Positions 1 to 10,585 of a stretch of 10,585 bases of DNA are shown here, piece after piece. A program made the position numbers and the translations under genes. How positions within the stretch are numbered: position 1 is the stretch's first letter; every line of letters starts with the position of its first letter. Origin of the DNA: a virus (Duplodnaviria; Heunggongvirae; Uroviricota; Caudoviricetes); the IMG/VR virus record IMGVR_UViG_2698536559_000013; one strand, 5' to 3'. The notes beneath the pieces were generated by a model. That model did no database searches. It worked only from the letters and a program-made list of their open reading frames with translations, and was not told the DNA's origin.

Positions 1-21
1 AATACGGTGCTCCGTTGACGC

Positions 22-3000
22 TTACGTTTTATCAACCACCAACGCACCATATTTAGACGGCCCAGATGTCTTAACATTCAATGCTCGACCACTTAATGCT
101 TCGCCTGACTTACTTTTCAACAGTAACGTAAATACCAGATTGTTGGTATCGCTCACTACAGCCGAAGATGCAGATGATGTGATCTCCAACACAGCCCCCT
201 TCACATCCGTTACGGCATCAATATTCTGGCTTGCGGTTATGCGTTTCCCATCCAGAACATACTCGGCCTGAATTGTGTACTGGCCTGATTTCGTTGCAGT
301 GAACTGCGTTGTTGCCTGTCCATGAGCATCCAGTTGCAGATTACTACTGGTCAATGATGCTCCCGTCGATGGTGTAATCGTTAAATCCACCTCGCCTGTA
401 AACGCATTGTTATTCGCATCAACCAACTGAATGTTTACTGTTGCGTTTTCACTGCCATCGGCCACAATCTCCTGTTTTGATACACTCATAGTAAGTTCTG
501 CAGAAGCAACATCGGGCACAAAAGTTAACTTAACGCTGCCAGATTCCACGCTATGGGAACCGTCAGTCACCCGTGCAGTCACCGTGTACTCACCAGCTTT
601 CACCGTTGTAAGCGGAACAGAAACATGCCCTGTTGAATCAGTCACGATATTTGTTGGTACAGATAATCCTTCAGATGAGGTGATGAGCTGAATCTTTTGC
701 CCATTGACCGACGCATTCGTATTTGTCAGCTGCACATCTAATACCGCTGCATCCTTACCATTAGCAGGAATATTGGAAATTAAACTACTGCTTTCAGGCG
801 TCAGTGACAGTGAAGCTCCGGTCATATTTGATGCAAAGGTCACTGTTAACTCAGTAGACATCTGAGAACCAGCATGAGCTGTAATCACGTAAGACCCCGG
901 AGTGGAGCTTATTAACGCAAAAATAGCATTACCATTTTCGTCAGTTGAAACAGCATGTTCACCACCAACTTGAGTTATCCCTGCTGGTAAAGACAATGTG
1001 ACAGCATAACCAGGAACAACATTGCCGAAACGGTCCGCAAGGCTTACAGTTACCATATTTCTCTGTTTTCCATCAGCCAATGCATTATTTTGGCTGGCTT
1101 CAAACTGAGAGAATGTAACCTGCTGCCGGTCCTCAATAAAGGTGATTTCTTTCTTAACACCTGAGAAATCATGACTATCAGATTTAACACCGATAGTAAT
1201 CTTACCAGCTCGTTTTGAAGTTACTGTCGCGCTATAGACACCGTCTTTTTCCGTTACAGTCCCAAACTCGACTCCTTCTGCCTGGTTAAGAGCATAAAAG
1301 CTCAGAGTGTTATCACCAGTGATTGCATTTCCTTGTGAATCCTTCACTGCCAGTTGTAGATTGATATTGTAACCAACTACCTGTTCTGCTGGTGCAGCGG
1401 TTAAAACAGCACTGACCTCAGAATCAGGTTCTGTTGCTGCTGTTTGCTTAATACTGAGAGTAAATGTTTTTCCCTGAACTTTTGCAGTTACACGTACCGT
1501 ACCAGCCTGCGAACCAGCAGTCAGAACAGAGTGATATACCCCAGCAGAGATTTCCTCTACCGCGCCTAATGACGGAGCAGTTACCGTTTCACGCTGTCGA
1601 GCACTATTGCTATCTGCTGTAAATTCCACTGACATTTCAATGTCATCAGCCAGTCCGGTTAATGCCTTACCGTTACTATCTTTCAGGCTTAATACTATCG
1701 GATAAGTGGATTGGCTATCAGCAGAGATCGTCGGCGACGAATCTCCATCCAGTGTAAAAGATGAATCCGCTGTCGAGACACCACTATTATTAACGCTGAT
1801 ATTCATAACGGCATAGTTGGAAACATTGCCTCTGTTATCCTGGACTGTGGCTCCAACATTCCACGAATTTACATCTCCGCTTTTATAAGCCGGTAAAGTG
1901 ATCTGCCATGATGTGCCATTTCCACTGATCTTACCGCCAGCCGCAGTGAATGCACTATCATTCCACTGTACAGACTTGATACCACCACTAGCATTGTTGA
2001 TTGTCAGTGTTACAGGGATGATTGATTCCCCCTCCCCCTGAACAGACTCTGGTAAGCTGATTTTCAGTGCATGCTTCTTCTTGTACTCCAGAACAATGTT
2101 GTTATTTCGTTCAACAAAATCATAACGCCGGTTCTGGACTTCTCGCATAACAGCAACATTGTCACTGCTAAGCTGTTCAGCAAGGGAAACGCCCGGGCGA
2201 TAATTAAACTCAACACCAAAGGTTGTATCGTGAACGTTGCTCTGTCCTTGCTTATGCTGTGCAGAAAACTTAATCAGAGGAACTGGTGTATAAGAAATTC
2301 CCCCAGTAACTGCGTAAGGGTTTTCCTGAAGATTATCGCTTCCAAATAACCCGACATTTTTACCATAATATTTTTCAAACTGAATGGATGCCCCTAATTG
2401 CGGATAAGCAGGTAGCCATCCTTCAGCAGAAAAATCCCAGCCATTTGCGGGTCTTTCCAGATAATCATCAATATCCCGACTGTTCTTCCAGTCAGACAAA
2501 CCAAAATAGGTATTTACACCAAGCCTGAAATAATCTCTCCAGTACTCAACCCCAAAACCTGCACGAGAGTGACTGCGACTTAAATCGTAATCATAGAAAA
2601 CATTCGCACCCAACATTGCGTTATCAGGAGTGAAATGACGAATCCCCAAACCAATATTGGTCTGATTTCGGTCATCAGTACGATGTAGTGATGTCTGACT
2701 GAATAGCACATAATCCTGAGTATCCAGCCATGGATATAAAAAGTCGAATGATGAATCCTTCAAGGAAAAAGAATCATCGACATTAAGCTTGATGCGCGCA
2801 TTGCCATATTGTTGCAACCAGTCGACGACCTCTTTTGTCGCCTGAGTTGATAAAGTATTTACAGCAAAACTACTTGCATTATTATTTGCTAGGCTCTGAC
2901 CTGCACTTGCTGCAAATGAGGCCACTTTATTTGCATGCTCATCGCTGGCATAAGTTTGCGTAACATCTTTATTACCAGATGATGCAAAACTGTTTGCTGG

Positions 3001-3102
3001 GATCAAAGAAAGAGAAACTGGAGATAATATCTGGGTAACAATTACCGACCATGTAATCGCGCCAGATGCAGTTTTTTTTAACTTTTTATTCACAGTGGTC
3101 AT
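22..3102 (-). CDS. Inverse autotransporter adhesin (intimin/invasin family), 1026 aa, apparently full length
   Basis: Long uninterrupted minus-strand ORF (stop TAA at 22-24, ATG at 3100-3102). N-terminus is hydrophobic and signal-peptide-like, followed by a sequence typical of the inverse-autotransporter beta-barrel domain (e.g. YDYDLSRSHSRAGFGVEYWRDYFRLGVNTYF, FGVEFNYRPGV). The rest is Ser/Thr/Val/Gly-rich, consistent with bacterial Ig-like (Big) repeat passenger domains. Family call is from recalled sequence features; domain boundaries were not computed. Confidence 0.85.
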   Translation of the reverse strand: MTTVNKKLKKTASGAITWSVIVTQILSPVSLSLIPANSFASSGNKDVTQTYASDEHANKVASFAASAGQSLANNNASSFAVNTLSTQATKEVVDWLQQYGNARIKLNVDDSFSLKDSSFDFLYPWLDTQDYVLFSQTSLHRTDDRNQTNIGLGIRHFTPDNAMLGANVFYDYDLSRSHSRAGFGVEYWRDYFRLGVNTYFGLSDWKNSRDIDDYLERPANGWDFSAEGWLPAYPQLGASIQFEKYYGKNVGLFGSDNLQENPYAVTGGISYTPVPLIKFSAQHKQGQSNVHDTTFGVEFNYRPGVSLAEQLSSDNVAVMREVQNRRYDFVERNNNIVLEYKKKHALKISLPESVQGEGESIIPVTLTINNASGGIKSVQWNDSAFTAAGGKISGNGTSWQITLPAYKSGDVNSWNVGATVQDNRGNVSNYAVMNISVNNSGVSTADSSFTLDGDSSPTISADSQSTYPIVLSLKDSNGKALTGLADDIEMSVEFTADSNSARQRETVTAPSLGAVEEISAGVYHSVLTAGSQAGTVRVTAKVQGKTFTLSIKQTAATEPDSEVSAVLTAAPAEQVVGYNINLQLAVKDSQGNAITGDNTLSFYALNQAEGVEFGTVTEKDGVYSATVTSKRAGKITIGVKSDSHDFSGVKKEITFIEDRQQVTFSQFEASQNNALADGKQRNMVTVSLADRFGNVVPGYAVTLSLPAGITQVGGEHAVSTDENGNAIFALISSTPGSYVITAHAGSQMSTELTVTFASNMTGASLSLTPESSSLISNIPANGKDAAVLDVQLTNTNASVNGQKIQLITSSEGLSVPTNIVTDSTGHVSVPLTTVKAGEYTVTARVTDGSHSVESGSVKLTFVPDVASAELTMSVSKQEIVADGSENATVNIQLVDANNNAFTGEVDLTITPSTGASLTSSNLQLDAHGQATTQFTATKSGQYTIQAEYVLDGKRITASQNIDAVTDVKGAVLEITSSASSAVVSDTNNLVFTLLLKSKSGEALSGRALNVKTSGPSKYGALVVDKT

Positions 3103-3351
3103 AGTTCAATCAACGTTATGAATATAATGAAAAAAATAACTGGTATGACAAGAGGCGCGAAATATACAGCTCGTTACAAAAAAATCAACTCAAAAATAAA
3201 ATAAAATCTCTGCATAAACTTTATGGCTAAATGATTTCACAACAATGGAAGAAAAATTTTGTTGCTCACGCAATCAATCATTTCGGGCGTTACAACTAGT
3301 CCTAGATTATATTCGCTAGGTATACTTTATTTTTAAGCTAATACTTTAGCT
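3103..3351 (-). promoter_or_regulatory. AT-rich upstream region of the adhesin gene; putative promoter/regulatory region
   Basis: About 250 bp of strongly AT-rich non-coding sequence between the stop of the P fragment and the adhesin start codon. No specific -35/-10 elements were confidently identified. Confidence 0.3.
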
Positions 3352-3912
3352 CTATTTCATCGCTCCTTTCAGCCCGAACTTAGCTTTGATTTCTGCGATC
3401 TTCGCCAGAGCCTGTGCACGATTTAGAGGTCTACCGCCCATGACAGGAAGTTGTTTTACTGGTTCAGGTATAGCCTCACCACGGTTAATTCGTGCGGTCA
3501 TACAGGACAGTTCATCGGCAGCCTTGCGCCGTAATTCCGCGTCAGTCAACGCATTGGCCCGCATGTTCTGATACAGGTTGGTAACCAGCCAGTAGTGCGC
3601 GTTTGATTTCCACGGATAAGACTCTGCATCCAGATACAGCCCGCGCTTCCGGCAATACTCGTAAACCATATCAACCAGCTCGCTGGCGTTTGGCAGTCCG
3701 GCGGTAACGGATGCTTCTTCCCGGCACCAGGCAACAAACTGCCCGGGTGATGGCAGGAATGGTCGATTCTGCCGACGGGCGACACGCACTCCGGCGCTCA
3801 CCTGTTCCATTGTGGTGATCCCGTTTTCCCGGAAAGCCAGAACCCACTGGCGGCGGATTTCGTTCAGTTCGTTCTGGTCCCGGTTAGCCAGGCTCGCCGG
3901 GAAAGTTGCCAG
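3352..3912 (-). pseudogene. P: C-terminal fragment of lambda replication protein P (about residues 48-233); first in-frame Met is at 3810, giving a 152-aa ORF
   Basis: Minus-strand translation reads LATFPASLANRDQNELNEIRRQWVLAFRENGITTMEQVSAGVRVARRQNRPFLPSPGQFVAWCREEASVTAGLP...RAQALAKIAEIKAKFGLKGAMK, which I recognise as near-identical to the C-terminal part of lambda P. In-frame sequence above about 3913 (RANHGYKCVRCRDADI) no longer matches P. The extreme C-terminus (GAMK) and downstream sequence also differ from lambda, where ren would follow. Confidence 0.85.
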
Positions 3913-3997
3913 TATATCTGCATCGCGGCATCGAACGCACTTATACCCGTGATTTGCTCGTGGAAGTTTTTCTCGACGGACGCGGTAACGGCCTGAA
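3913..3997. other. Junction segment of unknown origin between the P fragment and the gam-proximal lambda-like sequence
   Basis: P homology ends near 3913, and sequence I recognise as the region just upstream of lambda gam (tcactaa...cctgttttcctaatcagcccggcatttcgcgggcgatattttcacagc) begins near 3998. The roughly 85 bp between matches neither as far as I can recall. Confidence 0.4.
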
Positions 3998-4079
3998 TCA
4001 CTAATCTCCTTTCCTGTTTTCCTAATCAGCCCGGCATTTCGCGGGCGATATTTTCACAGCCATTTTCAGGAGTTCAGCC

Positions 4080-4376
4080 ATGAACGCTTATTACATTCAG
4101 GATCGTCTTGAGGCTCAGAGCTGGGCGCGTCACTACCAGCAGATCGCCCGTGAAGAGAAAGAGGCAGAACTGGCAGACGACATGGAAAAAGGCCTGCCCC
4201 AGCACCTGTTTGAATCGCTATGCATCGATCATTTGCAACGTCACGGGGCCAGCAAAAAAGCCATTACCCGTGCGTTTGATGACGATGTTGAGTTTCAGGA
4301 GCGCATGGCAGAACACATCCGGTACATGGTTGAAACCATTGCTCACCACCAGGTTGATATTGATTCAGAGGTATAA
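4080..4376 (+). CDS. gam: Gam (short GamS form, 98 aa), RecBCD inhibitor
   Basis: ORF translation [98 protein letters not shown] matches lambda Gam from its internal Met onward, with two substitutions relative to my recollection. Strong SD caggag sits 7 nt upstream of the ATG. Confidence 0.9.
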
Positions 4377-4381
4377 AACGA

Positions 4382-4911
4382 ATGAGTACTGCACTCGCAA
4401 CGCTGGCAGGGAAGCTGGCTGAACGTGTCGGCATGGATTCTGTCGACCCACAGGAACTGATCACCACTCTTCGCCAGACGGCATTTAAAGGTGATGCCAG
4501 CGATGCGCAGTTCATCGAAAAACCCGCGAAGGCAGAGAAATCACCGGACCGTGGCAGTCGCATCCCAAACGAATGTTGCGGCATAAAGCCATGATTCAGT
4601 GTGCCCGTCTGGCCTTCGGATTTGCTGGTATCTATGACAAGGATGAAGCCGAGCGCATTGTCGAAAATACTGCATACACTGCGGAACGTCAGCCGGAACG
4701 CGACATCACTCCGGTTAACGATGAAACCATGCAGGAGATTAACACTCTGCTGATCGCCCTGGATAAAACATGGGATGACGACTTATTGCCGCTCTGTTCC
4801 CAGATATTTCGCCGCGACATTCGCGCATCGTCAGAACTGACACAGGCCGAAGCAGTGAAAGCTCTTGGATTCCTGAAACAGAAAGCCACTGAGCAGAAGG
4901 TGGCAGCATGA
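4382..4911 (+). pseudogene. bet: bet (Red-beta single-strand annealing protein) disrupted by an internal out-of-frame deletion
   Basis: N-terminal 45 residues (MSTALATLAGKLAERVGMDSVDPQELITTLRQTAFKGDASDAQFI) match lambda Bet, then the frame reads non-Bet sequence to a stop at 4592-4594. The Bet C-terminal part (PKRMLRHKAMIQCARLAFGFAGIYDKDEAERIVENTAYTAERQPERD...[11 protein letters not shown]) continues in the +1 frame to 4911. The breakpoint lies near 4515-4520 (ttcatcg/aaaaacccgcgaagg). Confidence 0.85.
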
Positions 4912-5588
4912 CACCGGACATTATCCTGCAGCGTACCGGGATCGACGTGAGAGCTGTCGAACAGGGGGATGATGCATGGCACAAATTACGGCTCGGCGTC
5001 ATCACCGCTTCAGAAGTTCATAACGTGATAGCAAAGCCCCGATCAGGAAAGAAGTGGCCTGACATGAAAATGTCCTACTTCCACACCCTGCTGGCTGAGG
5101 TTTGCACCGGTGTGGCTCCGGAAGTTAATGCTAAGGCGCTGGCCTGGGGAAAACAGTACGAGAACGACGCCAGAACTCTGTTTGAATTCACTTCCGGCGT
5201 GAATGTTACTGAATCCCCGATCATCTATCGCGACGAAAGTATGCGCACCGCCTGCTCTCCCGATGGTTTATGCAGTGACGGCAATGGCCTTGAGCTGAAA
5301 TGCCCGTTTACCTCCCGGGATTTCATGAAGTTCCGGCTCGGTGGTTTCGAGGCCATAAAGTCGGCTTACATGGCCCAGGTGCAGTACAGCATGTGGGTGA
5401 CGCGAAAAGATGCCTGGTACTTTGCCAACTATGACCCGCGTATGAAGCGTGAAGGACTGCATTATGTCGTGGTTGAGCGGGATGAAAAGTACATGGCGAG
5501 TTTTGACGAGATGGTGCCGGAGTTCATCGAAAAAATGGACGAGGCACTGGCTGAAATTGGTTTTGTATTTGGGGAGCAATGGCGATGA
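4908..5588 (+). CDS. exo: Lambda-type exonuclease (Red-alpha, Exo), 226 aa
   Basis: Full-length ORF whose translation ([65 protein letters not shown]...[15 protein letters not shown]) matches lambda Exo with a few substitutions. ATGA start/stop overlap with bet, as in lambda. Confidence 0.95.
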
Positions 5589-5767
5589 AGCATCCTCACG
5601 ATAATATCCGGGTAGGCGCGATCACTTTCGTCTACTCCGTTACAAAGCGAGGCTGGGTATTTCCCGGCCTTTCTGTTATCCGAAATCCCCTGAAAGCACA
5701 GCGGCTGGCTGAGGAGATAAATAATAAACGGGGAGCTGTATGCACAAAGCATCTCCCGTTGAGTTAA
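5585..5767 (+). CDS. orf60a: Lambda orf60a-like small protein (60 aa from the ATG overlapping the exo stop; an upstream ATG at 5579 would give 62 aa)
   Basis: Translation [57 protein letters not shown]... matches my recollection of lambda orf60a. ATGA overlap with the exo stop. Confidence 0.7.
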
Positions 5768-5931
5768 GAACGAGTATCGAGATGGCACATAGCCTCGCTC
5801 AAATTGGAGTCAGGTTTGTGCCAATACCAGTAGAAACAGACGAAGAATTTCATACGTTAGCCGCATCCCTTTCACAAAAGCTGGAAATGATGGTGGCGAA
5901 AGCAGAAGCAGATGAGAGAGACCAGGTATGA
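5740..5931 (+). CDS. orf63: Lambda orf63-like small protein (63 aa)
   Basis: ORF of exactly 63 codons ([63 protein letters not shown]) in the position of orf63 of the lambda early-left operon. Overlaps the 3' end of orf60a in another frame. Confidence 0.7.
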   Translation: MHKASPVELRTSIEMAHSLAQIGVRFVPIPVETDEEFHTLAASLSQKLEMMVAKAEADERDQV

Positions 5932-6011
5932 CAACCACTGAATGCATTTTTCTGGCAGCGGTCTTCATATTCTGTGTGCTTATGCTTGCCGACATGGGAC
6001 TTGTTCAATGA
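5928..6011 (+). CDS. Candidate 27-aa hydrophobic small protein (MTTTECIFLAAVFIFCVLMLADMGLVQ)
   Basis: Below the ORF-track size cutoff. Its ATG overlaps the orf63 stop as ATGA (5928-5931) and its stop overlaps the orf61 start as ATGA (6008-6011). The core is strongly hydrophobic, consistent with a single transmembrane helix. Confidence 0.4.
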   Translation: MTTTECIFLAAVFIFCVLMLADMGLVQ

Positions 6012-6223
6012 CACCTCAGCAAGAAAACGCCCTTCGCAGCATTGCCCATCTGGCTAATTATGAAATCAAAAAAGCCAGACAGCAGTTTCCGGATAAAAAC
6101 GTCGATGACATTTGCCGTAGCGTACTGAAGAAGCACCGCGAAACGGTAACGCTGATGGGATTCACACCGACTCATTTAAGCCTGGCGATCGGCATGTTAA
6201 ACGGCGTCTTTAAGGAACGGTGA
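6008..6223 (+). CDS. orf61: Lambda orf61-like small protein (71 aa from this ATG)
   Basis: Translation MTPQQENALRSIAHLANYEIKKARQQFPDKNVDDICRSVLKKHRETVTLMGFTPTHLSLAIGMLNGVFKER; position and sequence are consistent with lambda orf61. The track ORF starts at an upstream ATG (5942), but the ATGA-coupled start at 6008 is more plausible. Confidence 0.65.
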   Translation: MTPQQENALRSIAHLANYEIKKARQQFPDKNVDDICRSVLKKHRETVTLMGFTPTHLSLAIGMLNGVFKER

Positions 6224-6225
6224 GC

Positions 6226-6315
6226 ATGAAAAACAAAATCATCATGGAGCTACAGGCTCCTTTTTTATTATTCGCATTCACCCTCAAGCGTATTAACCAA
6301 CAATTCAGGGATTAA
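6226..6315 (+). CDS. Candidate 29-aa small ORF (MKNKIIMELQAPFLLFAFTLKRINQQFRD)
   Basis: Short ORF filling the gap between orf61 and orf73, with aagga about 9 nt upstream of the ATG. No homology recognised; could be non-coding spacer. Confidence 0.2.
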   Translation: MKNKIIMELQAPFLLFAFTLKRINQQFRD

Positions 6316-6321
6316 TGAAAG

Positions 6322-6543
6322 ATGGCAGACATCATTGATTCAGCATCAGAAATTGAAGAATTACAGCGCAACACAGCAATAAAAATGCGCCGCCTGAACC
6401 ACCAGGCTATATCTGCCACTCATTGTTGTGAGTGTGGCGATCCGATAGATGAACGAAGACGTCTGGCCGTTCAGGGTTGTCGGACTTGTGCAAGTTGCCA
6501 GGAAGATCTGGAGCTTATCAGTAAACAGAGAGGTTCGAAGTGA
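6322..6543 (+). CDS. orf73: TraR/DksA-family C4 zinc-finger protein (lambda orf73-like), 73 aa
   Basis: 73-aa ORF with two Cys pairs (CCECGDP...CRTCASC) typical of the TraR/DksA zinc finger. Position matches lambda orf73. Confidence 0.8.
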   Translation: MADIIDSASEIEELQRNTAIKMRRLNHQAISATHCCECGDPIDERRRLAVQGCRTCASCQEDLELISKQRGSK

Positions 6544-7088
6544 GCGAAATTAACTCTCAGGCACTGCGTGAAGCGGCAGAGCAGGCAATGCATGACGACT
6601 GGGGATTTGATGCGGACCTTTTCCATGAGCTGGTAACACCATCGATTGTGCTGGCGCTGCTGGATGAACGGGAATCCCAAAACAAGCGTATTGCAGAACT
6701 GGAGAAAAGCGAAGAGCAACTCATTAACGAGCGTGACCATGCTGAGTCTGCTTTAGATGATATGTACTTTGCAGCAACCGGTAACAGGCCGGAGTGGAGC
6801 AACTGGTTCGGCTTTTCAGATGCTGTCGATGCCGTGGTTGACAGAATTGCTGATTTAGAAGCTAAACAATGCATTGAAGAGATGAGTAAACAAAGTTGCG
6901 AAGCTCGGGAGCGTGATTTGTTTGAATCATGGGTAATGCATTCAATTTGTATTTCCAAATCGACGCTTGAAGGATTGCGCACCGAAACTGGATACCGTAA
7001 CGCGACCTTATCAGGAACAGACTTCAACCGCATGTGGGAACAATGGAAATCTATCCGCGCTGCTGGTATTCGCATCAAAGGAGACTGA
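6540..7088 (+). CDS. ea22: Ea22-like protein, 182 aa (GTG start)
   Basis: 182-codon ORF whose N-terminus MSEINSQALREAAEQAMHDDWGFDADLFHELVTPSIVL matches my recollection of lambda Ea22. GTG start overlaps the orf73 stop (GTGA). Central region is coiled-coil-like and charged. Confidence 0.8.
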   Translation: MSEINSQALREAAEQAMHDDWGFDADLFHELVTPSIVLALLDERESQNKRIAELEKSEEQLINERDHAESALDDMYFAATGNRPEWSNWFGFSDAVDAVVDRIADLEAKQCIEEMSKQSCEARERDLFESWVMHSICISKSTLEGLRTETGYRNATLSGTDFNRMWEQWKSIRAAGIRIKGD

Positions 7089-7089
7089 T

Positions 7090-7299
7090 ATGGCTATTGC
7101 CGCAAGTTATACCATGCATCTCTATTGTGATTGTCGCCAGTGTACGGAAGGTGTATATCCAGTGCCAGACTTCGGTGAGTATATCGGTACGTCATGGTCT
7201 GGTTGTGCAAAAGAGGCCCGTAAAGATGGGTGGCGAATAAGCAAAGACAAAACACGTACTTTTGCGCCCGGGCATAAAGTTTTGAGGATTAACACATGA
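7090..7299 (+). CDS. ea8.5: Ea8.5-like Cys-rich small protein (69 aa from the ATG at 7090)
   Basis: ORF with the Cys motif HLYCDCRQCTEG...SGCAKEARKDGW in the position of lambda ea8.5. SD aaggag immediately upstream of the 7090 ATG. The track's longer version (from 6967) overlaps ea22 out of frame and is less likely. Confidence 0.7.
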   Translation: MAIAASYTMHLYCDCRQCTEGVYPVPDFGEYIGTSWSGCAKEARKDGWRISKDKTRTFAPGHKVLRINT

Positions 7300-8078
7300 C
7301 CACTATTACCAAAGAACGTATTGAATTGTTCATTAAAAATCCGCTTGAAAACGGGCTTACTCGTGGCGAACAAATGGAACTGGCACGAATTGCACTGGCA
7401 TCACTGGAACGCGAACAGATTCGCCACGAGCATGCCAAATGGTCTGACTCCACATTTGGCTGCGTTGGCCCCATTGGTCCACTGAAACACCTCTCAAAAG
7501 AGGCACTGGAAGCCGCAGCCGAACCAGACGATCTTAGCGAGTGGGCTGATATGCAGTTTCTGTTGTGGGATGCACAACGCCGTGCTGGCATCAGCGATGC
7601 TGAAATTAACGTTGCTATGGAAGATAAATTGAAGATCAACATGGAGCGCCAGTGGCCTGAGCCAAAAGATGGTGAGCCTCGCTTGCACATTAAAGAACCC
7701 GGCAACTCTCCGGTAATTCCGGATGGTTTATCCACGGTATGCGCTGAGGCTTATCAGGTTGTAGGAGTTATGGCAGATGCGCTTGGTGTATTCGGTGATG
7801 CAGCAGTACAGAAAGTTCTGGATAACCTGTCACAGCAAAAACTTGTTCACAGAGATGTGCTGCCGTTCTCGCTTCCGGTAACTCCGGATAGTTGGATAAG
7901 CTGTAGTGAGCGAATGCCGAACGACGCGCAGTGGTGCGTAGTGAACACAGAATACGGGTATTACGCGCAATGCTGGTCTGAAGGTCAAGGGTGGCTTGGT
8001 GATGATATCAGCATCCCTGAATGCGATGTAATCAATTGGATGCCACTACCAGAACCGCCGCAGGAGGTGAATCAATGA
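7296..8078 (+). CDS. Phage accessory protein with an N-terminal MazG-like (DUF550, dATP/dGTP pyrophosphohydrolase-type) domain and a C-terminal DUF551-like Cys/Trp-rich domain, 260 aa
   Basis: ATGA overlap with the ea8.5 stop; SD gagga 7 nt upstream. The N-terminal half carries acidic helix motifs (KEALEAAAEPDDLSEWADMQFLLWDAQRRAG) resembling all-alpha NTP pyrophosphohydrolases. The C-terminal half (WISCSERMPNDAQWCVVNTEYGYYAQCWSEGQGWLGDDISIPECDVINWMPLPEPP) resembles DUF551. Domain calls are from memory of motifs, not a profile search. Confidence 0.75.
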   Translation: MTTITKERIELFIKNPLENGLTRGEQMELARIALASLEREQIRHEHAKWSDSTFGCVGPIGPLKHLSKEALEAAAEPDDLSEWADMQFLLWDAQRRAGISDAEINVAMEDKLKINMERQWPEPKDGEPRLHIKEPGNSPVIPDGLSTVCAEAYQVVGVMADALGVFGDAAVQKVLDNLSQQKLVHRDVLPFSLPVTPDSWISCSERMPNDAQWCVVNTEYGYYAQCWSEGQGWLGDDISIPECDVINWMPLPEPPQEVNQ

Positions 8079-8158
8079 GCTGGCCTGAAGCATTCGCAAC
8101 GGTAGGAATTGCAATGGCGGTAGCACTGGTTTTGTATTCAATTTGTCGCTGGGGATAA
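8075..8158 (+). CDS. Candidate 27-aa membrane peptide (MSWPEAFATVGIAMAVALVLYSICRWG)
   Basis: ATGA overlap with the stop of the 260-aa gene; SD-like caggaggtga 5-14 nt upstream. Hydrophobic core consistent with one transmembrane helix. Below the ORF-track cutoff. Confidence 0.4.
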   Translation: MSWPEAFATVGIAMAVALVLYSICRWG

Positions 8159-8279
8159 CGATGATGCTCATGCGGAAATCATCAAAAAAATGGAACTGCT
8201 AACATGATTTAGGTGGGAGCCTGGAAGATGGCTCCACATATCAACATAGATTATTTCAGGATTCCATATTTTAACTAAT

Positions 8280-9164
8280 CTAAGTTCGACTATTTGGGGC
8301 ATTGATATGCTGTAAATGATGCTTAAGCCAATTTCCAGCCGCGCCTGGTGGCGATTTTTTATTCCAAAGCAGATCGATAGAAATTGCCTTTGGCCAGCCA
8401 GGTACGTCGAGCTGAACCAGCGGTTTTTCTGTTGCAAACTCCTCAACCAGAGCACAGGGCAGAGAGCACCAGCCAAATCCCTGTACGGCCATACTGAGTA
8501 ACAACAAATAGTTAGGTGCAGACCAAACCGGTCCACGGGCAATCATCTCCCGGTTATCGATATAAGTATTAAGACGAAGTTCTCGCCATGAATGAAGTTG
8601 TTCCCGCTGGATTGTTTTTTCTGCAGACAGTGGATGTGACGCCGAAACATAAATGCCCATCCACGCTTGCATCGGTAAACGGGTTGAGCCAATATCGGTG
8701 GGGTAGTGTTCCCGAGACTCAATTAAGCCGATCTGCGCTCGTTCTTTTTGCAAAAGATCGATGACATCGACATCCTCACCAATTAAAACCTCTAACTCAG
8801 TATGTGGAAACTGACTATCAAACTGCACCATGATGTCTTCTAATAAGTCAGGGTGTAGGGTATCGGAAAGCACAAACGTCAGACGAGCTTCAGTCTCTCC
8901 GGCAAGCGAAACCGCCACCTCCTCAAGACGTTCACTGGCTGACAAAATCGCATGAACGTAACTCAATACTTTCTTTCCTTCCTCTGTCAGCACAGGTTCT
9001 CGCGAAGAGCGATCGAATAATGATATACCAAGATCGACCTCAAGATTGGCAATTGACGTACTGACTGCGGACTGACTTTTGCGTAATCTTCGTGCCGCAG
9101 CAGAAAAGGAGCCACAGGAAACCGCTTCAACAAATGTACTTAACGCTTCAAGTGAGTAACGCAT
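8280..9164 (-). CDS. LysR-family transcriptional regulator, 294 aa
   Basis: N-terminal HTH typical of LysR-type regulators (LEALSTFVEAVSCGSFSAAARRLRKSQSAVSTSIANLEVDLGISLFDRSSREPVLTEEG) followed by a co-inducer-binding-type domain. Transcribed divergently from the adjacent transporter gene. Confidence 0.9.
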   Translation of the reverse strand: MRYSLEALSTFVEAVSCGSFSAAARRLRKSQSAVSTSIANLEVDLGISLFDRSSREPVLTEEGKKVLSYVHAILSASERLEEVAVSLAGETEARLTFVLSDTLHPDLLEDIMVQFDSQFPHTELEVLIGEDVDVIDLLQKERAQIGLIESREHYPTDIGSTRLPMQAWMGIYVSASHPLSAEKTIQREQLHSWRELRLNTYIDNREMIARGPVWSAPNYLLLLSMAVQGFGWCSLPCALVEEFATEKPLVQLDVPGWPKAISIDLLWNKKSPPGAAGNWLKHHLQHINAPNSRT

Positions 9165-9267
9165 AATCTATCAATTTTTTCGATGGTATCTATCTTTTAT
9201 ATATCACATAAATCGATAAAAATCTCACAACTCCATAACGCGGTCGAAACTGTAAGAAAGGTAAGTT
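9165..9267. promoter_or_regulatory. Divergent intergenic control region between the LysR gene and the PACE transporter gene
   Basis: 103-bp AT-rich spacer between divergent start codons. Contains an imperfect inverted repeat, tttttcgat (9176-9184) and atcgataaaaa (9213-9223), as might serve a LysR-type operator. No promoter elements were verified. Confidence 0.4.
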
Positions 9268-9726
9268 ATGCAACATAATGCGATTCAACGCAGATCGTTA
9301 CTTGAGCGTATTTTTCACGCTATTTGCTTTGAAGGAATTGCCACTGCGATTCTGGCCCCCACCACAGCATGGTTAATGCAGCGAACTATACTCGAAATGG
9401 GCGGGATGACTATCTTGTTGGCTTCAACTGCAATGATCTGGAATATCATCTATAACATGCTATTTGATCGCTACTGGCCTGCTCATCAGGTAAAACGAAC
9501 TGCAAAAGTTCGTGCATTCCATGCTTTGGGCTTTGAAAGTGGATTTATCGCGATCGGCGTCATTATGGTGTCCTGGATTCTGAGCGTCAGTCTGTTACAG
9601 GCTTTTACACTAGAGATAGGATTCTTCCTTTTCTTTCTACCATATACCATGTTCTACAATTGGGCCTATGACAGCTTACGTTTACGTGTTGTGAAACAGC
9701 ATCAACAACGTATGCTTGCCAGATAA
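9268..9726 (+). CDS. PACE-family (AceI-like) small efflux transporter, 152 aa
   Basis: Two tandem repeats each beginning with the R-x-x-h-A-x-x-F-E motif (ERIFHAICFEG and VRAFHALGFESG), plus WNxxYNxxFD-like motifs (MIWNIIYNMLFD, MFYNWAYD) and four predicted hydrophobic helices. Divergent LysR partner, as in aceR-aceI. Confidence 0.8.
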   Translation: MQHNAIQRRSLLERIFHAICFEGIATAILAPTTAWLMQRTILEMGGMTILLASTAMIWNIIYNMLFDRYWPAHQVKRTAKVRAFHALGFESGFIAIGVIMVSWILSVSLLQAFTLEIGFFLFFLPYTMFYNWAYDSLRLRVVKQHQQRMLAR

Positions 9727-9800
9727 TGTTTTCCCAGGGGAGTAATGAAAATCGCGCAATAATTTTCGATATCCATACTGTACCCCCACCGACTTAACAT

Positions 9801-9827
9801 CCCCGCCCTCGCGGGGATTTCTTTTAT
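9801..9827 (+). terminator. Rho-independent terminator downstream of the PACE gene
   Basis: GC-rich hairpin ccccgc-cctc-gcgggg (9801-9816) followed by a T-rich tract atttcttttat. Confidence 0.6.
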
Positions 9828-9830
9828 CTG

Positions 9831-9857
9831 AACTCGCTACGGCGAGTTTTGTTTTAT
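9831..9857 (+). terminator. Second tandem hairpin plus T-tract; possible back-up terminator
   Basis: aactcgc-tacg-gcgagtt stem-loop (9831-9848) followed by ttgttttat. Confidence 0.4.
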
Positions 9858-9868
9858 GGGGATGATAA

Positions 9869-10036
9869 ATGCACTTCCGAGTCACAGGAGAATGGAATGG
9901 AGAGCCATTCAACAGGGTTATCGAAACAGAGAACATCAACGACTGCTATGACCACTGGATAATATGGGCGCAGATAGCACATGCAGACATAACCAATATT
10001 CGAATTGAAGAACTGAAAGAACACCAAGCCGCCTGA
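9869..10036 (+). CDS. Candidate 55-aa protein of unknown function (MHFRVTGEWNGEPFNRVIETENINDCYDHWIIWAQIAHADITNIRIEELKEHQAA)
   Basis: Below the track cutoff. SD gggga 6 nt upstream of the ATG; in-frame stop immediately upstream; followed directly by a terminator hairpin. No family recognised. Confidence 0.45.
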   Translation: MHFRVTGEWNGEPFNRVIETENINDCYDHWIIWAQIAHADITNIRIEELKEHQAA

Positions 10037-10049
10037 TGGCGGTTTTTTT
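10028..10049 (+). terminator. Rho-independent terminator/attenuator overlapping the stop of the 55-aa ORF
   Basis: gccgcc-tgat-ggcgg hairpin followed by ttttttt (10043-10049). Confidence 0.55.
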
Positions 10050-10063
10050 ATTGGAGACAAGAA

Positions 10064-10408
10064 ATGTCAGATTTGGCTATGAAGGTTTTGAAATGGCAAT
10101 CGACTGGCGATGTTGGCATCAGTAGCGCAACTCTTGCCTCAATCGCATGTGGACTGAAAAAGAATATCTATGGTCATAGCTTCGGTGCTCCACATGACGC
10201 AGCCGATTTCAGACGATGCGTTGCACTTGTTGAGCAGATTCCAGAAATCAGAGATTCATTCGACAAGGTTGCAAAGCGCGTTCCGGCATTCAAAGGCATC
10301 CTCAACGAATGGGATTCCCTCGTTGCTCTGTTGAAGTCAGAAATGAAGATACACGGAAACAAAGCACCAGAGACTTACAGAAGAATCAGCGAGCTACGCA
10401 AGGACTAA
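10064..10408 (+). CDS. Hypothetical protein, 114 aa, unknown function
   Basis: ORF with SD ggaga 6 nt upstream of the ATG. Soluble-looking, mixed-charge protein (MSDLAMKVLKWQSTGDVGISSATLASIACGLKKNIYGHSFGAPHDAADFRRCVALVEQIPEIRDSFDKVAKRV...). No family recognised. Confidence 0.6.
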   Translation: MSDLAMKVLKWQSTGDVGISSATLASIACGLKKNIYGHSFGAPHDAADFRRCVALVEQIPEIRDSFDKVAKRVPAFKGILNEWDSLVALLKSEMKIHGNKAPETYRRISELRKD

Positions 10409-10585
10409 CCATGAAATAACACCGCCTCACACTCGATGAGGCCTGTTCATTGCTCAATGATATCCAGACCTACCGCAATAATACCAACTCAATAAATGGA
10501 GATTCCAGGTGGAAGAAGAAATCTTCACTCGTGAAGAGGCAGCATCGTATCTGAAGGTAGTGTAGTGGTCAACAAAAACTGGCCA

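Follow-up and report, generated by a model that had tools for sequence, protein, structure and literature searches.

The lambda-like DNA in a 10,585-nucleotide stretch of the IMG/VR virus record IMGVR_UViG_2698536559_000013 (the whole stretch is called the window here) raises the question of how a fragment of the replication gene P came to lie beside the early-left genes gam, bet and exo, and how large the element is to which these genes belong. An initial annotation had described positions 3352-8158 as a decayed lambdoid prophage remnant. This identification was right; its scope, the number of events assumed and the argument from selection were not. The window very probably lies wholly inside a grounded, that is defective, lambdoid prophage at thrW of Escherichia coli, a natural analogue of the DLP12 prophage of E. 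coli K-12.

Alignment to the lambda genome (NC_001416) by blastn gave matches of 3362-3914 to lambda 40273-39721 (P, 93.7%), of 3998-4517 to 33193-32675 (gam and the 5' end of bet, 98.5%) and of 4519-6674 to 32417-30261 (the 3' end of bet to the 5' end of ea22, 97.0%). With lambda proteins as tblastn queries, Exo was identified at 98.7%, orf60a at 96.7%, orf63 at 95.2%, orf61 at 89% and Gam at 86%, and P was covered over residues ~47-231. Pfam matches were obtained to Phage_lambda_P, Gam, YqaJ, DUF1317, DUF1382, zf-dskA_traR and Ead_Ea22. The synteny with lambda 33193-30261 (gam-bet-exo-orf60a-orf63-orf61-orf73-ea22) is kept at 97-98.5%, and Pfam and tblastn agree with the nucleotide matches on a P fragment joined to lambda-like gam to ea22 genes at 93-98% identity, as initially described. 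The loss of the immunity and early control genes was likewise confirmed, with no cI, cro, cII, O, N, cIII, ral, sieB or rex found in the window, and the immunity/control region is also missing from the identical complete genome.

The window is chromosomal DNA of E. coli. It matches the complete genome of E. coli 377323_2f (NZ_CP039404.1; locus L001) at 100% over positions 26-4517 and 4519-10585, which correspond to 8001-12492 and 12750-18816 there. Three further complete genomes also match at 100%, and three more, from soil and water, at 98.9%. The only gaps relative to the complete genomes matching at 100% are the deletion in bet of the window itself and bases 1-25. Counts of complete genomes given below refer to a set of 5,426 complete E. 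coli genomes, and searches of phage records to 50,697 deposited phage genomes. The comparison loci included L001, a near-complete sequence type 131 (ST131) prophage at icd, of which a 34.6-kb stretch was read (L002), and a soil isolate (L008).

The joint between P and the early-left genes was mapped on the ST131 prophage, which is 97-99% identical to the window on both sides. The interval lost between these flanks amounts to 3,497 bp in the ST131 prophage and to about the same in a prophage of Rb-50. In both it contains the 5' end of P, an O-type replication gene, a ydaT-type gene at the cII position, a cro-like gene, a cI-like gene (S24 peptidase) and the 5' end of kil. The P remnant comprises codons 47-233 and is collinear with L002 up to 16246, within an intact P at 15684-16385; the Prokaryotic Genome Annotation Pipeline (PGAP) annotates it as 'replication protein P, incomplete, missing N-terminus'. 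About 85 bp of unrecognised sequence had been noted next to it. Of this, 83 bp (3915-3997) indeed gave no alignment to lambda by blastn, but they were identified as the tail of a kil gene (phrog_294), in frame with a 68-amino-acid kil-like gene of the ST131 prophage.

P and the early-left genes are thus fused head-to-head without an immunity region because one mapped deletion removed P codon 47 to kil codon 40. This single event of about 3.5 kb explains the whole loss at the joint, whereas the initial annotation had assumed at least two deletions or rearrangements for the relic. The join is blunt, and no microhomology was found in the junction sequences. A 120-nucleotide probe across it is contiguous in exactly 7 of the complete genomes, the isolates being from human, dog, soil and water. 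The pL/pR region and the origin of the ancestor would have lain within the lost interval. Of an O/P replication module only the P pseudogene is left, with O and the origin absent, and repressor, cro, operators, N/pL and pR of an immunity region are missing as well. With its immunity region deleted, the element is therefore a defective member of the lambdoid group.

A gam-bet-exo set without immunity genes is generally known from recombineering constructs, and the locus could on this resemblance be a lambda Red insert left behind in a laboratory strain. However, the divergence of 1.5-6% from lambda throughout, the non-lambda kil allele upstream of gam and the lack of a selectable marker, cI857 or vector sequence make such an origin barely conceivable, and the identical junction is embedded at thrW in seven wild isolates from soil, water, dog and human.

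The 3' side of P had been read as a further breakpoint of decay. Here, the lambda homology stops at the stop codon of P, and beyond an AT-rich spacer lies a gene for an inverse autotransporter of the intimin/invasin family, which is found between P and the nin genes in both the ST131 prophage and E. coli 377323_2f. A 401-nucleotide probe spanning P, the spacer and the autotransporter gene is contiguous in 558 of the complete genomes (~10%), including ST131. The order in the ST131 prophage is P, autotransporter, (IS66), alpha/beta hydrolase, ybcN, ninE, ybcO, rusA, ylcG and Q, and its immunity, replication (O, P), nin, Q, lysis, terminase, xis and int genes are kept. Since the same joint occurs in so many genomes, among them a prophage retaining its core genes, the 3' side of P is no deletion scar but an ordinary mosaic boundary or cargo position, at the place of ren and ninB in lambda. 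The autotransporter gene had no match in the deposited phage genomes and is known only from prophages. In the window it is cut by an insertion of ISEc23, leaving 1026 amino acids compared to 1183 (3,552 bp with stop) in E. coli 377323_2f. No name was assigned to it by the IatA-D/YeeJ/FdeC scheme (Goh et al. 2019, PMC6714894), the text of which gives neither sequences nor prophage context.

On the other side, the ea8.5 gene initially placed after ea22 had to be dropped, since a tblastn search of the whole window with lambda Ea8.5 gave no match (E <= 1e-3); this place is taken by a phrog_926 gene and a DUF550/DUF551 gene. The lambdoid DNA does not end there. It resumes, after a cargo cassette, at 9795-10560 with an attachment site-proximal module containing orf55 (95.3% identical to lambda 29360-29106), orf114 and the beginning of xis; orf114 and the xis codons are 95% identical to mEp213 and mEp043, and the module has PHROG matches to phrog_676 and phrog_1229. 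In E. coli 377323_2f, positions 18026-18791 and 20042-21437 are collinear with phage mEp213 (at 4254-4256 there) and flank a 1,250-bp insert of the IS3 family of insertion sequences (IS) with a TAG duplication. An intact int follows outside the window and abuts a tRNA-Thr gene; int and xis are 98.4% identical to those of mEp213. Initially, int and xis were reported as absent after ea8.5, and int is indeed outside the window, but the first 17 codons of xis are inside it, and the DNA of E. coli 377323_2f, which is identical to the window, shows the int-xis module in prophage order after the ea genes and next to a tRNA gene. The prophage is integrated at thrW because the mEp213-type int abuts tRNA-Thr and the attP of mEp213 is annotated as thrW/CP4-6 type; according to that annotation, thrW is the site of CP4-6 in K-12.

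In the complete genomes matching at 100%, the element extends over about 16 kb, from thrW/int to a rusA gene truncated by IS3. Its order in E. coli 377323_2f is thrW, int, xis::IS3, orf114, orf55, [PACE, LysR], DUF550/551, phrog_926, ea22, orf73, orf61, orf63, orf60a, exo, bet, gam, kil'/P', autotransporter, hydrolase, ybcN, ninE, ybcO, rusA', IS3, int' and yagU. The similarity to the ST131 prophage ends inside rusA, beside a second IS3-family copy. Core genes lying just outside the window had been named as evidence that would count against a relic. This was borne out for int and the nin genes, which stand there in prophage order, but not for immunity, Q, lysis and structural genes: of the nin, Q, lysis and morphogenesis genes, E. 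coli 377323_2f has only ybcN-ninE-ybcO and a short annotated gene fragment, followed by an IS3-family element, with Q, lysis and virion genes absent.

To the left of the remnant in E. coli 377323_2f, positions 3346-3742 hold the 3' part of another int, a site resembling att and a phage arm of ~140 bp. This stretch is collinear with the attP region of mEp213 at 83% identity, which points to an older element of the thrW type in tandem with the lambdoid remnant. In the soil isolate, another prophage with tyrosine recombinase, baseplate and capsid genes directly follows the int of the remnant.

A minimal relic of 4.8 kb (3352-8158), holding nothing but the P fragment and the Red/accessory genes, shaped by at least two deletions including one on the 3' side of P and kept open by selection, is very unlikely. 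It is correct on the reality of the P fragment and early-left genes and on the loss of the immunity region. However, the element extends on both sides of this interval, the gene at 22-3102 being prophage cargo, and the joint at the 3' end of P is a common mosaic and not a scar. Most of the retained reading frames had been described as intact with ATGA coupling preserved. The start-stop overlaps are real (ATGA/GTGA at 4908-4911, 5585-5588, 6540-6543 and 7296-7299), and gam, exo and the small open reading frames (ORFs) are intact, but bet is frameshifted in the window, although it is annotated as intact (786 bp) in E. coli 377323_2f and the soil isolate.

The deletion in bet removes Bet residues 46-131 and shifts the frame, so that ORFs of 70 and 112 amino acids remain; by tblastn, only Bet 1-45 and 132-261 were found in the window. 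The missing 256 bp are also present in the other carriers listed. The junction is contiguous in none of the complete genomes, every match being split by 256 bp, and it was not found by exact-pattern scans of species-representative genomes and metagenome contigs. An exact-protein look-up of the truncated 70-amino-acid Bet product in a gene index gave no record. The 112-amino-acid C-terminal ORF was also tried as a marker of the lesion and was not diagnostic, since its look-up gave many unrelated prophages with bet split otherwise. The collection indexes this ORF as a gene of its own in 146 blocks. Ten of these loci were shown (L009-L018), and several of them, among them L012, a lambda-like prophage with rexAB, have bet divided into ORFs of ~142 and 112 amino acids; in L009 it is interrupted by an IS. 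Resident prophages seem to lose an intact bet frequently.

The window starts and ends exactly 25 bp into IS elements and looks like a whole short-read contig stopping at repeats. With several similar lambdoid prophages per genome (the median number of matching places per E. coli genome is 2) and a bet deletion found nowhere else, the joints could have been produced by an assembler that collapsed or mis-joined repeated lambdoid sequence. Such an artefact is very improbable, more so than the minimal relic: the P/kil junction is contiguous in seven complete genomes, and the junction of ISEc23 and the autotransporter gene, absent from all seven of these genomes, is reproduced in contigs from independent sequencing runs (Logan, SRR36257219 and SRR9969839). 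For bet, the two sides of the junction share <=4 bp, with a filler of 1 nucleotide and no microhomology, so that a de Bruijn mis-join through a shared k-mer is implausible. The bet deletion was therefore taken as a real lesion private to the lineage of the source strain. Of the three proteins of the lambda Red system, Gam and Exo are intact, and because Bet is broken the system is predicted to be non-functional in this strain.

The initial annotation had offered recent decay or selection on the retained genes to explain the open frames. Between E. coli 377323_2f and the soil isolate, which carry the same junction, the synonymous divergence is 0.12 for bet, 0.11 for orf60a and 0.12 for orf73, compared to 0.005 for the autotransporter gene, 0.01 for the LysR gene and 0.008 for int, and the P fragment has zero synonymous differences. 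Neighbouring genes thus vary about 25-fold, and the soil isolate has an additional deletion in ea22. This patchiness fits better with allele exchange or gene conversion with co-resident lambdoid prophages than with purifying selection in place. The ratio of nonsynonymous to synonymous divergence (dN/dS) was computed and rejected as a test of selection; given the recombination, a low dN/dS in bet reflects alleles imported from working phages and is uninformative on selection in the grounded element. With bet broken and divergence patchy between carriers, the data give no support for selection on the Red genes, and recent decay explains them more simply.

The gam-exo operon is probably silent, because pL, N and nutL are all gone from the element, a consensus scan gave no plus-strand sigma-70-like promoter between 3352 and 4080, and two terminator-like hairpins lie upstream of gam. 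Without N and nutL, these hairpins would block read-through into the Red genes. A comparison can be drawn to recET of the Rac prophage, which is silent until activated. In the spacer between P and the autotransporter gene, promoter-like sites, identified as consensus matches only, were found on the minus strand facing the autotransporter gene (3188-3161 and 3151-3124) and on the plus strand (3173-3202). An Rfam scan of the whole window at gathering threshold gave no match.

From these comparisons the following history can be proposed. The ancestor would have been a mosaic lambdoid phage combining an int-xis module of the mEp213/SfX type with a lambda-like Red/ea early-left arm and an immunity/replication region of the type present in the ST131 and Rb-50 prophages. 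Its right arm would have been P-[inverse autotransporter]-[hydrolase]-ybcN-ninE-ybcO-rusA, and the LysR-PACE cassette would have been carried between the DUF550/551 gene and orf55. Three steps disabled it: the blunt deletion of ~3.5 kb between P codon 47 and kil codon 40, the insertion of an IS3-family element in xis, and a truncation at rusA, next to another IS3-family copy, by which Q, the lysis genes and all virion genes were lost. Two further lesions are private to the lineage of the strain, namely the frameshifting 256-bp deletion in bet and the ISEc23 insertion removing the C-terminus of the autotransporter. To judge from its gene content, the element should be unable to induce, to replicate, to excise alone, to lyse the cell or to form particles. 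Still able to act may be the genes with promoters of their own, namely the LysR-PACE pair, the hydrolase gene and, in strains where it is intact, the adhesin gene, and the DNA of the element may serve as a homology patch for recombination with other lambdoid phages.

Several points weigh against this reconstruction. The exact immunity region of the ancestor is deduced from relatives that are 96-98% identical on the flanks, and the map beyond the IS ends was read from other strains, identical over the shared DNA. The bet deletion has been seen in this window alone. The promoter scan considered the consensus only, so that a weak or non-canonical promoter antisense of the P fragment may exist, for example the 9/12 match at 3173-3202.

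Table 1. Features of the window (positions refer to its 10,585 nucleotides; bp, base pairs; nt, nucleotide).
Feature	Position	Strand	Remarks
ISEc23-like (IS66-family) terminal 25 bp	1-25		inserted in inverse-autotransporter gene; exact reverse-complement of ISEc23 end, L002 8934-8958
Inverse autotransporter gene (intimin/invasin family), prophage cargo	22-3102	-	Pfam IAT_beta 3e-101, Big_1, Invasin_D3 repeats
AT-rich spacer between P and autotransporter gene	3103-3351		30% GC, by GC count
Replication gene P, pseudogene	3352-3914	-	first 46 codons lost; Pfam Phage_lambda_P 1e-56; 93.7% to lambda 40273-39721
Deletion junction P'/kil'	3914/3915		1439-3914 = L002 13771-16246; 3915-4517 = L002 19744-20346
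kil 3' fragment	3915-4004	+	last 29 codons and stop; non-lambda KilR-type cell-division inhibitor allele; phrog_294 'Kil protein' 2e-10
Terminator-like hairpin and T-run, second	3947-3963	+	in kil fragment; consensus pattern scan only
Terminator-like GC hairpin and T-run	4029-4046	+	kil-gam spacer, just upstream of gam; consensus pattern scan only
gam, 98-amino-acid form	4080-4376	+	intact; Pfam Gam 3e-65, full length; 98.5% nt identity to lambda
bet, pseudogene with internal deletion	4382-4911	+	257 bp lost (L001 12493-12749), single A at 4518, net -256 bp
exo, 226 amino acids	4908-5588	+	intact; 98.7% amino acid identity to lambda Exo; Pfam YqaJ
orf60a homologue	5585-5767	+	DUF1317
orf63 homologue	5740-5931	+	DUF1382
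orf61 homologue	6008-6223	+	phrog_303
TraR/DksA zinc-finger gene (initially orf73)	6322-6543	+	Pfam zf-dskA_traR 8e-9; inside the 97% lambda alignment
Ead/Ea22-like gene	6540-7088	+	lambda-like at 5' end only; nt homology to lambda ends at 6674
phrog_926 gene	7090-7299	+	PHROG; not ea8.5
DUF550 (dATP/dGTP pyrophosphohydrolase) and DUF551 gene	7296-8078	+	Pfam; not ea8.5
Cargo cassette, ~1.6 kb	8160-9794		44% GC; between DUF550/551 gene and orf55
LysR-family regulator	8280-9164	-	Pfam HTH_1, LysR_substrate; divergent from PACE gene
PACE-family (AceI-like) efflux transporter	9268-9726	+	Pfam BTP x2, 2.8e-44
orf55 (lambda p35 homologue)	9869-10036	+	within resumed lambdoid DNA
orf114 (HK022p30 type)	10064-10408	+	95% to mEp213 and mEp043
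xis, first 17 codons	10509-10560	+	mEp213-type; cut by IS3-family element
IS3-family element, first 25 bp	10561-10585		inserted in xis, TAG target duplication; PGAP: IS3 family transposase in L001

The closest parallel to the P/kil fusion is present in DLP12, which is integrated at argU in K-12 with the order intD-xisD'-exoD'/peaD'-renD::IS3-emrE...ybcN-ninE-ybcO-rusA-ylcG-quuD. Like the thrW element, DLP12 is grounded, has a P pseudogene (peaD) head-to-head with an early-left fragment after deletion of the immunity and origin region, and contains the ybcN-ninE-ybcO-rusA nin module, an IS3-family insertion and cargo genes after P. Identity to the window is 94% for its P fragment (3362-3663) and 97% for its exo fragment (5309-5614). 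However, DLP12 joins exo (window 5309) to P (window 3663), so that gam, bet and most of exo are also lost. Because these breakpoints differ from those of the kil'/P' deletion, the two deletions are independent events. DLP12 also has its own int (intD) and keeps Q, lysis genes and nohD, whereas the thrW element has an mEp213-type int and nothing beyond rusA, although gam-(bet)-exo and the ea genes are retained. After P, DLP12 carries emrE as cargo and the thrW element the inverse autotransporter gene. With an insertion site and int other than argU and intD, the thrW element is an analogue of DLP12 and not the same prophage.

Compared to lambda, the order gam-bet-exo-orf60a-orf63-orf61-orf73-ea22, and later orf55, is kept at 95-98.5% nucleotide identity, and P at 93.7%. 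Unlike lambda, the thrW element has no pL, N, nutL, cIII, ral, sieB, rex, cI, cro, cII, O or ori, and its kil allele is different. The 3' half of ea22, ea8.5, xis and int are replaced by other modules, and ren and ninB-D by cargo genes and a DLP12-type nin module.

The prophages of ST131 (icd) and Rb-50 (next to torI/dsdC) are 96-99% identical to the thrW element on either side of its deletion. The former shares the P-autotransporter-hydrolase-nin arm and the latter the DUF550/551-[LysR-PACE]-orf55-orf114 arm. In contrast to the thrW element, both keep the 3.5-kb interval, with immunity, O, P, Q, lysis and terminase genes, at other integration sites and with other modules, and Rb-50 has emrE in place of the autotransporter gene. 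Phage mEp213 (also mEp043 and the SfX-type integration module) is 95-98% identical over orf55-orf114-xis-int-attP. It is, however, a viable phage whose early-left arm has, in the stretch read, abc2 and further non-lambda genes instead of Red, whereas xis of the thrW element is split by the IS3-family element. The thrW element is a new instance of a well-known kind, an ordinary grounded lambdoid prophage.

Among the genes between ea22 and the cassette, the Ea22-like protein matches lambda Ea22 over the N-terminal 92 residues only (56% by tblastn). Phage ev017 is 99% identical to the window across 7077-7895, and homology to this phage ends at 7895. The DUF550/DUF551 gene is one ORF of 260 amino acids, which PGAP divides into a 42-codon 'partial' gene and a 227-amino-acid gene, a split that points to an old fusion, in frame, at a mosaic boundary around 7420.

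The cargo cassette consists of a LysR-type regulator gene divergent from a gene for a PACE-family transporter, a 152-amino-acid protein with two tandem BTP (PF05232) domains. No phage record covers the cassette; phages of the HK022 type match its flanks only. The cassette is present in 14 of the complete E. coli genomes, and 7 of these are carriers of the thrW remnant. Both other carriers that were read contain the module DUF551-[LysR-PACE]-orf55-orf114 next to torI, one in an IS-riddled remnant (L007) and one in the near-complete lambdoid prophage of Rb-50, which retains portal, terminase, lysis, Q, nin, P, O, immunity and Red genes. The closest homologues among species representatives are chromosomal, in Citrobacter (81-83% amino acid identity) and Salmonella diarizonae (80%). 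A plasmid origin of the pair was considered and rejected, the only matches being of 66-73% identity in large records labelled as plasmids.

In Acinetobacter baumannii, where AceI is the prototype of such transporters, AceI is controlled by the divergent LysR-type regulator AceR. The pair in the thrW element resembles these AceI/AceR cassettes in having a small two-BTP transporter beside a divergent LysR regulator. Unlike them, it is located inside a lambdoid prophage, in a species without core PACE genes, for which four accessory homologues have been identified, each in <=0.2% of strains (PMC6195760). According to the same review, there is no strong evidence for the route by which PACE genes of E. 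coli are mobilised (PMC6195760). Since the cassette lies in a conserved early-left module (DUF550/551-[LysR-PACE]-orf55-orf114-xis) that occurs at two sites (thrW and torI/dsdC), and one of the two torI/dsdC carriers read is a near-complete prophage, lambdoid phages may have carried a Citrobacter-like PACE pair into E. coli and moved it about, with grounding having fixed the pair in a small lineage; the chances for this proposal are about even.

The thrW element is an example of how a prophage is grounded: the inducible, lethal and replicative core has been lost by one deletion and IS insertions, and the cargo survives. Given the parallel with the exoD'/peaD' join of DLP12, it suggests that the interval from P to the early-left genes is repeatedly lost in lambdoid prophages. 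Divergence from lambda beside P usually marks a mosaic cargo site and not decay, and a single contig bounded by IS ends can lead to a 16-kb element being mistaken for a 4.8-kb relic. The importance of these findings is modest and goes little beyond bookkeeping; the only mildly interesting by-product is a PACE efflux gene, rare in E. coli, in a lambdoid early-left module. The phage-borne LysR-PACE cassette is a small testable lead on the entry of a rare member of a biocide-efflux family into E. coli.

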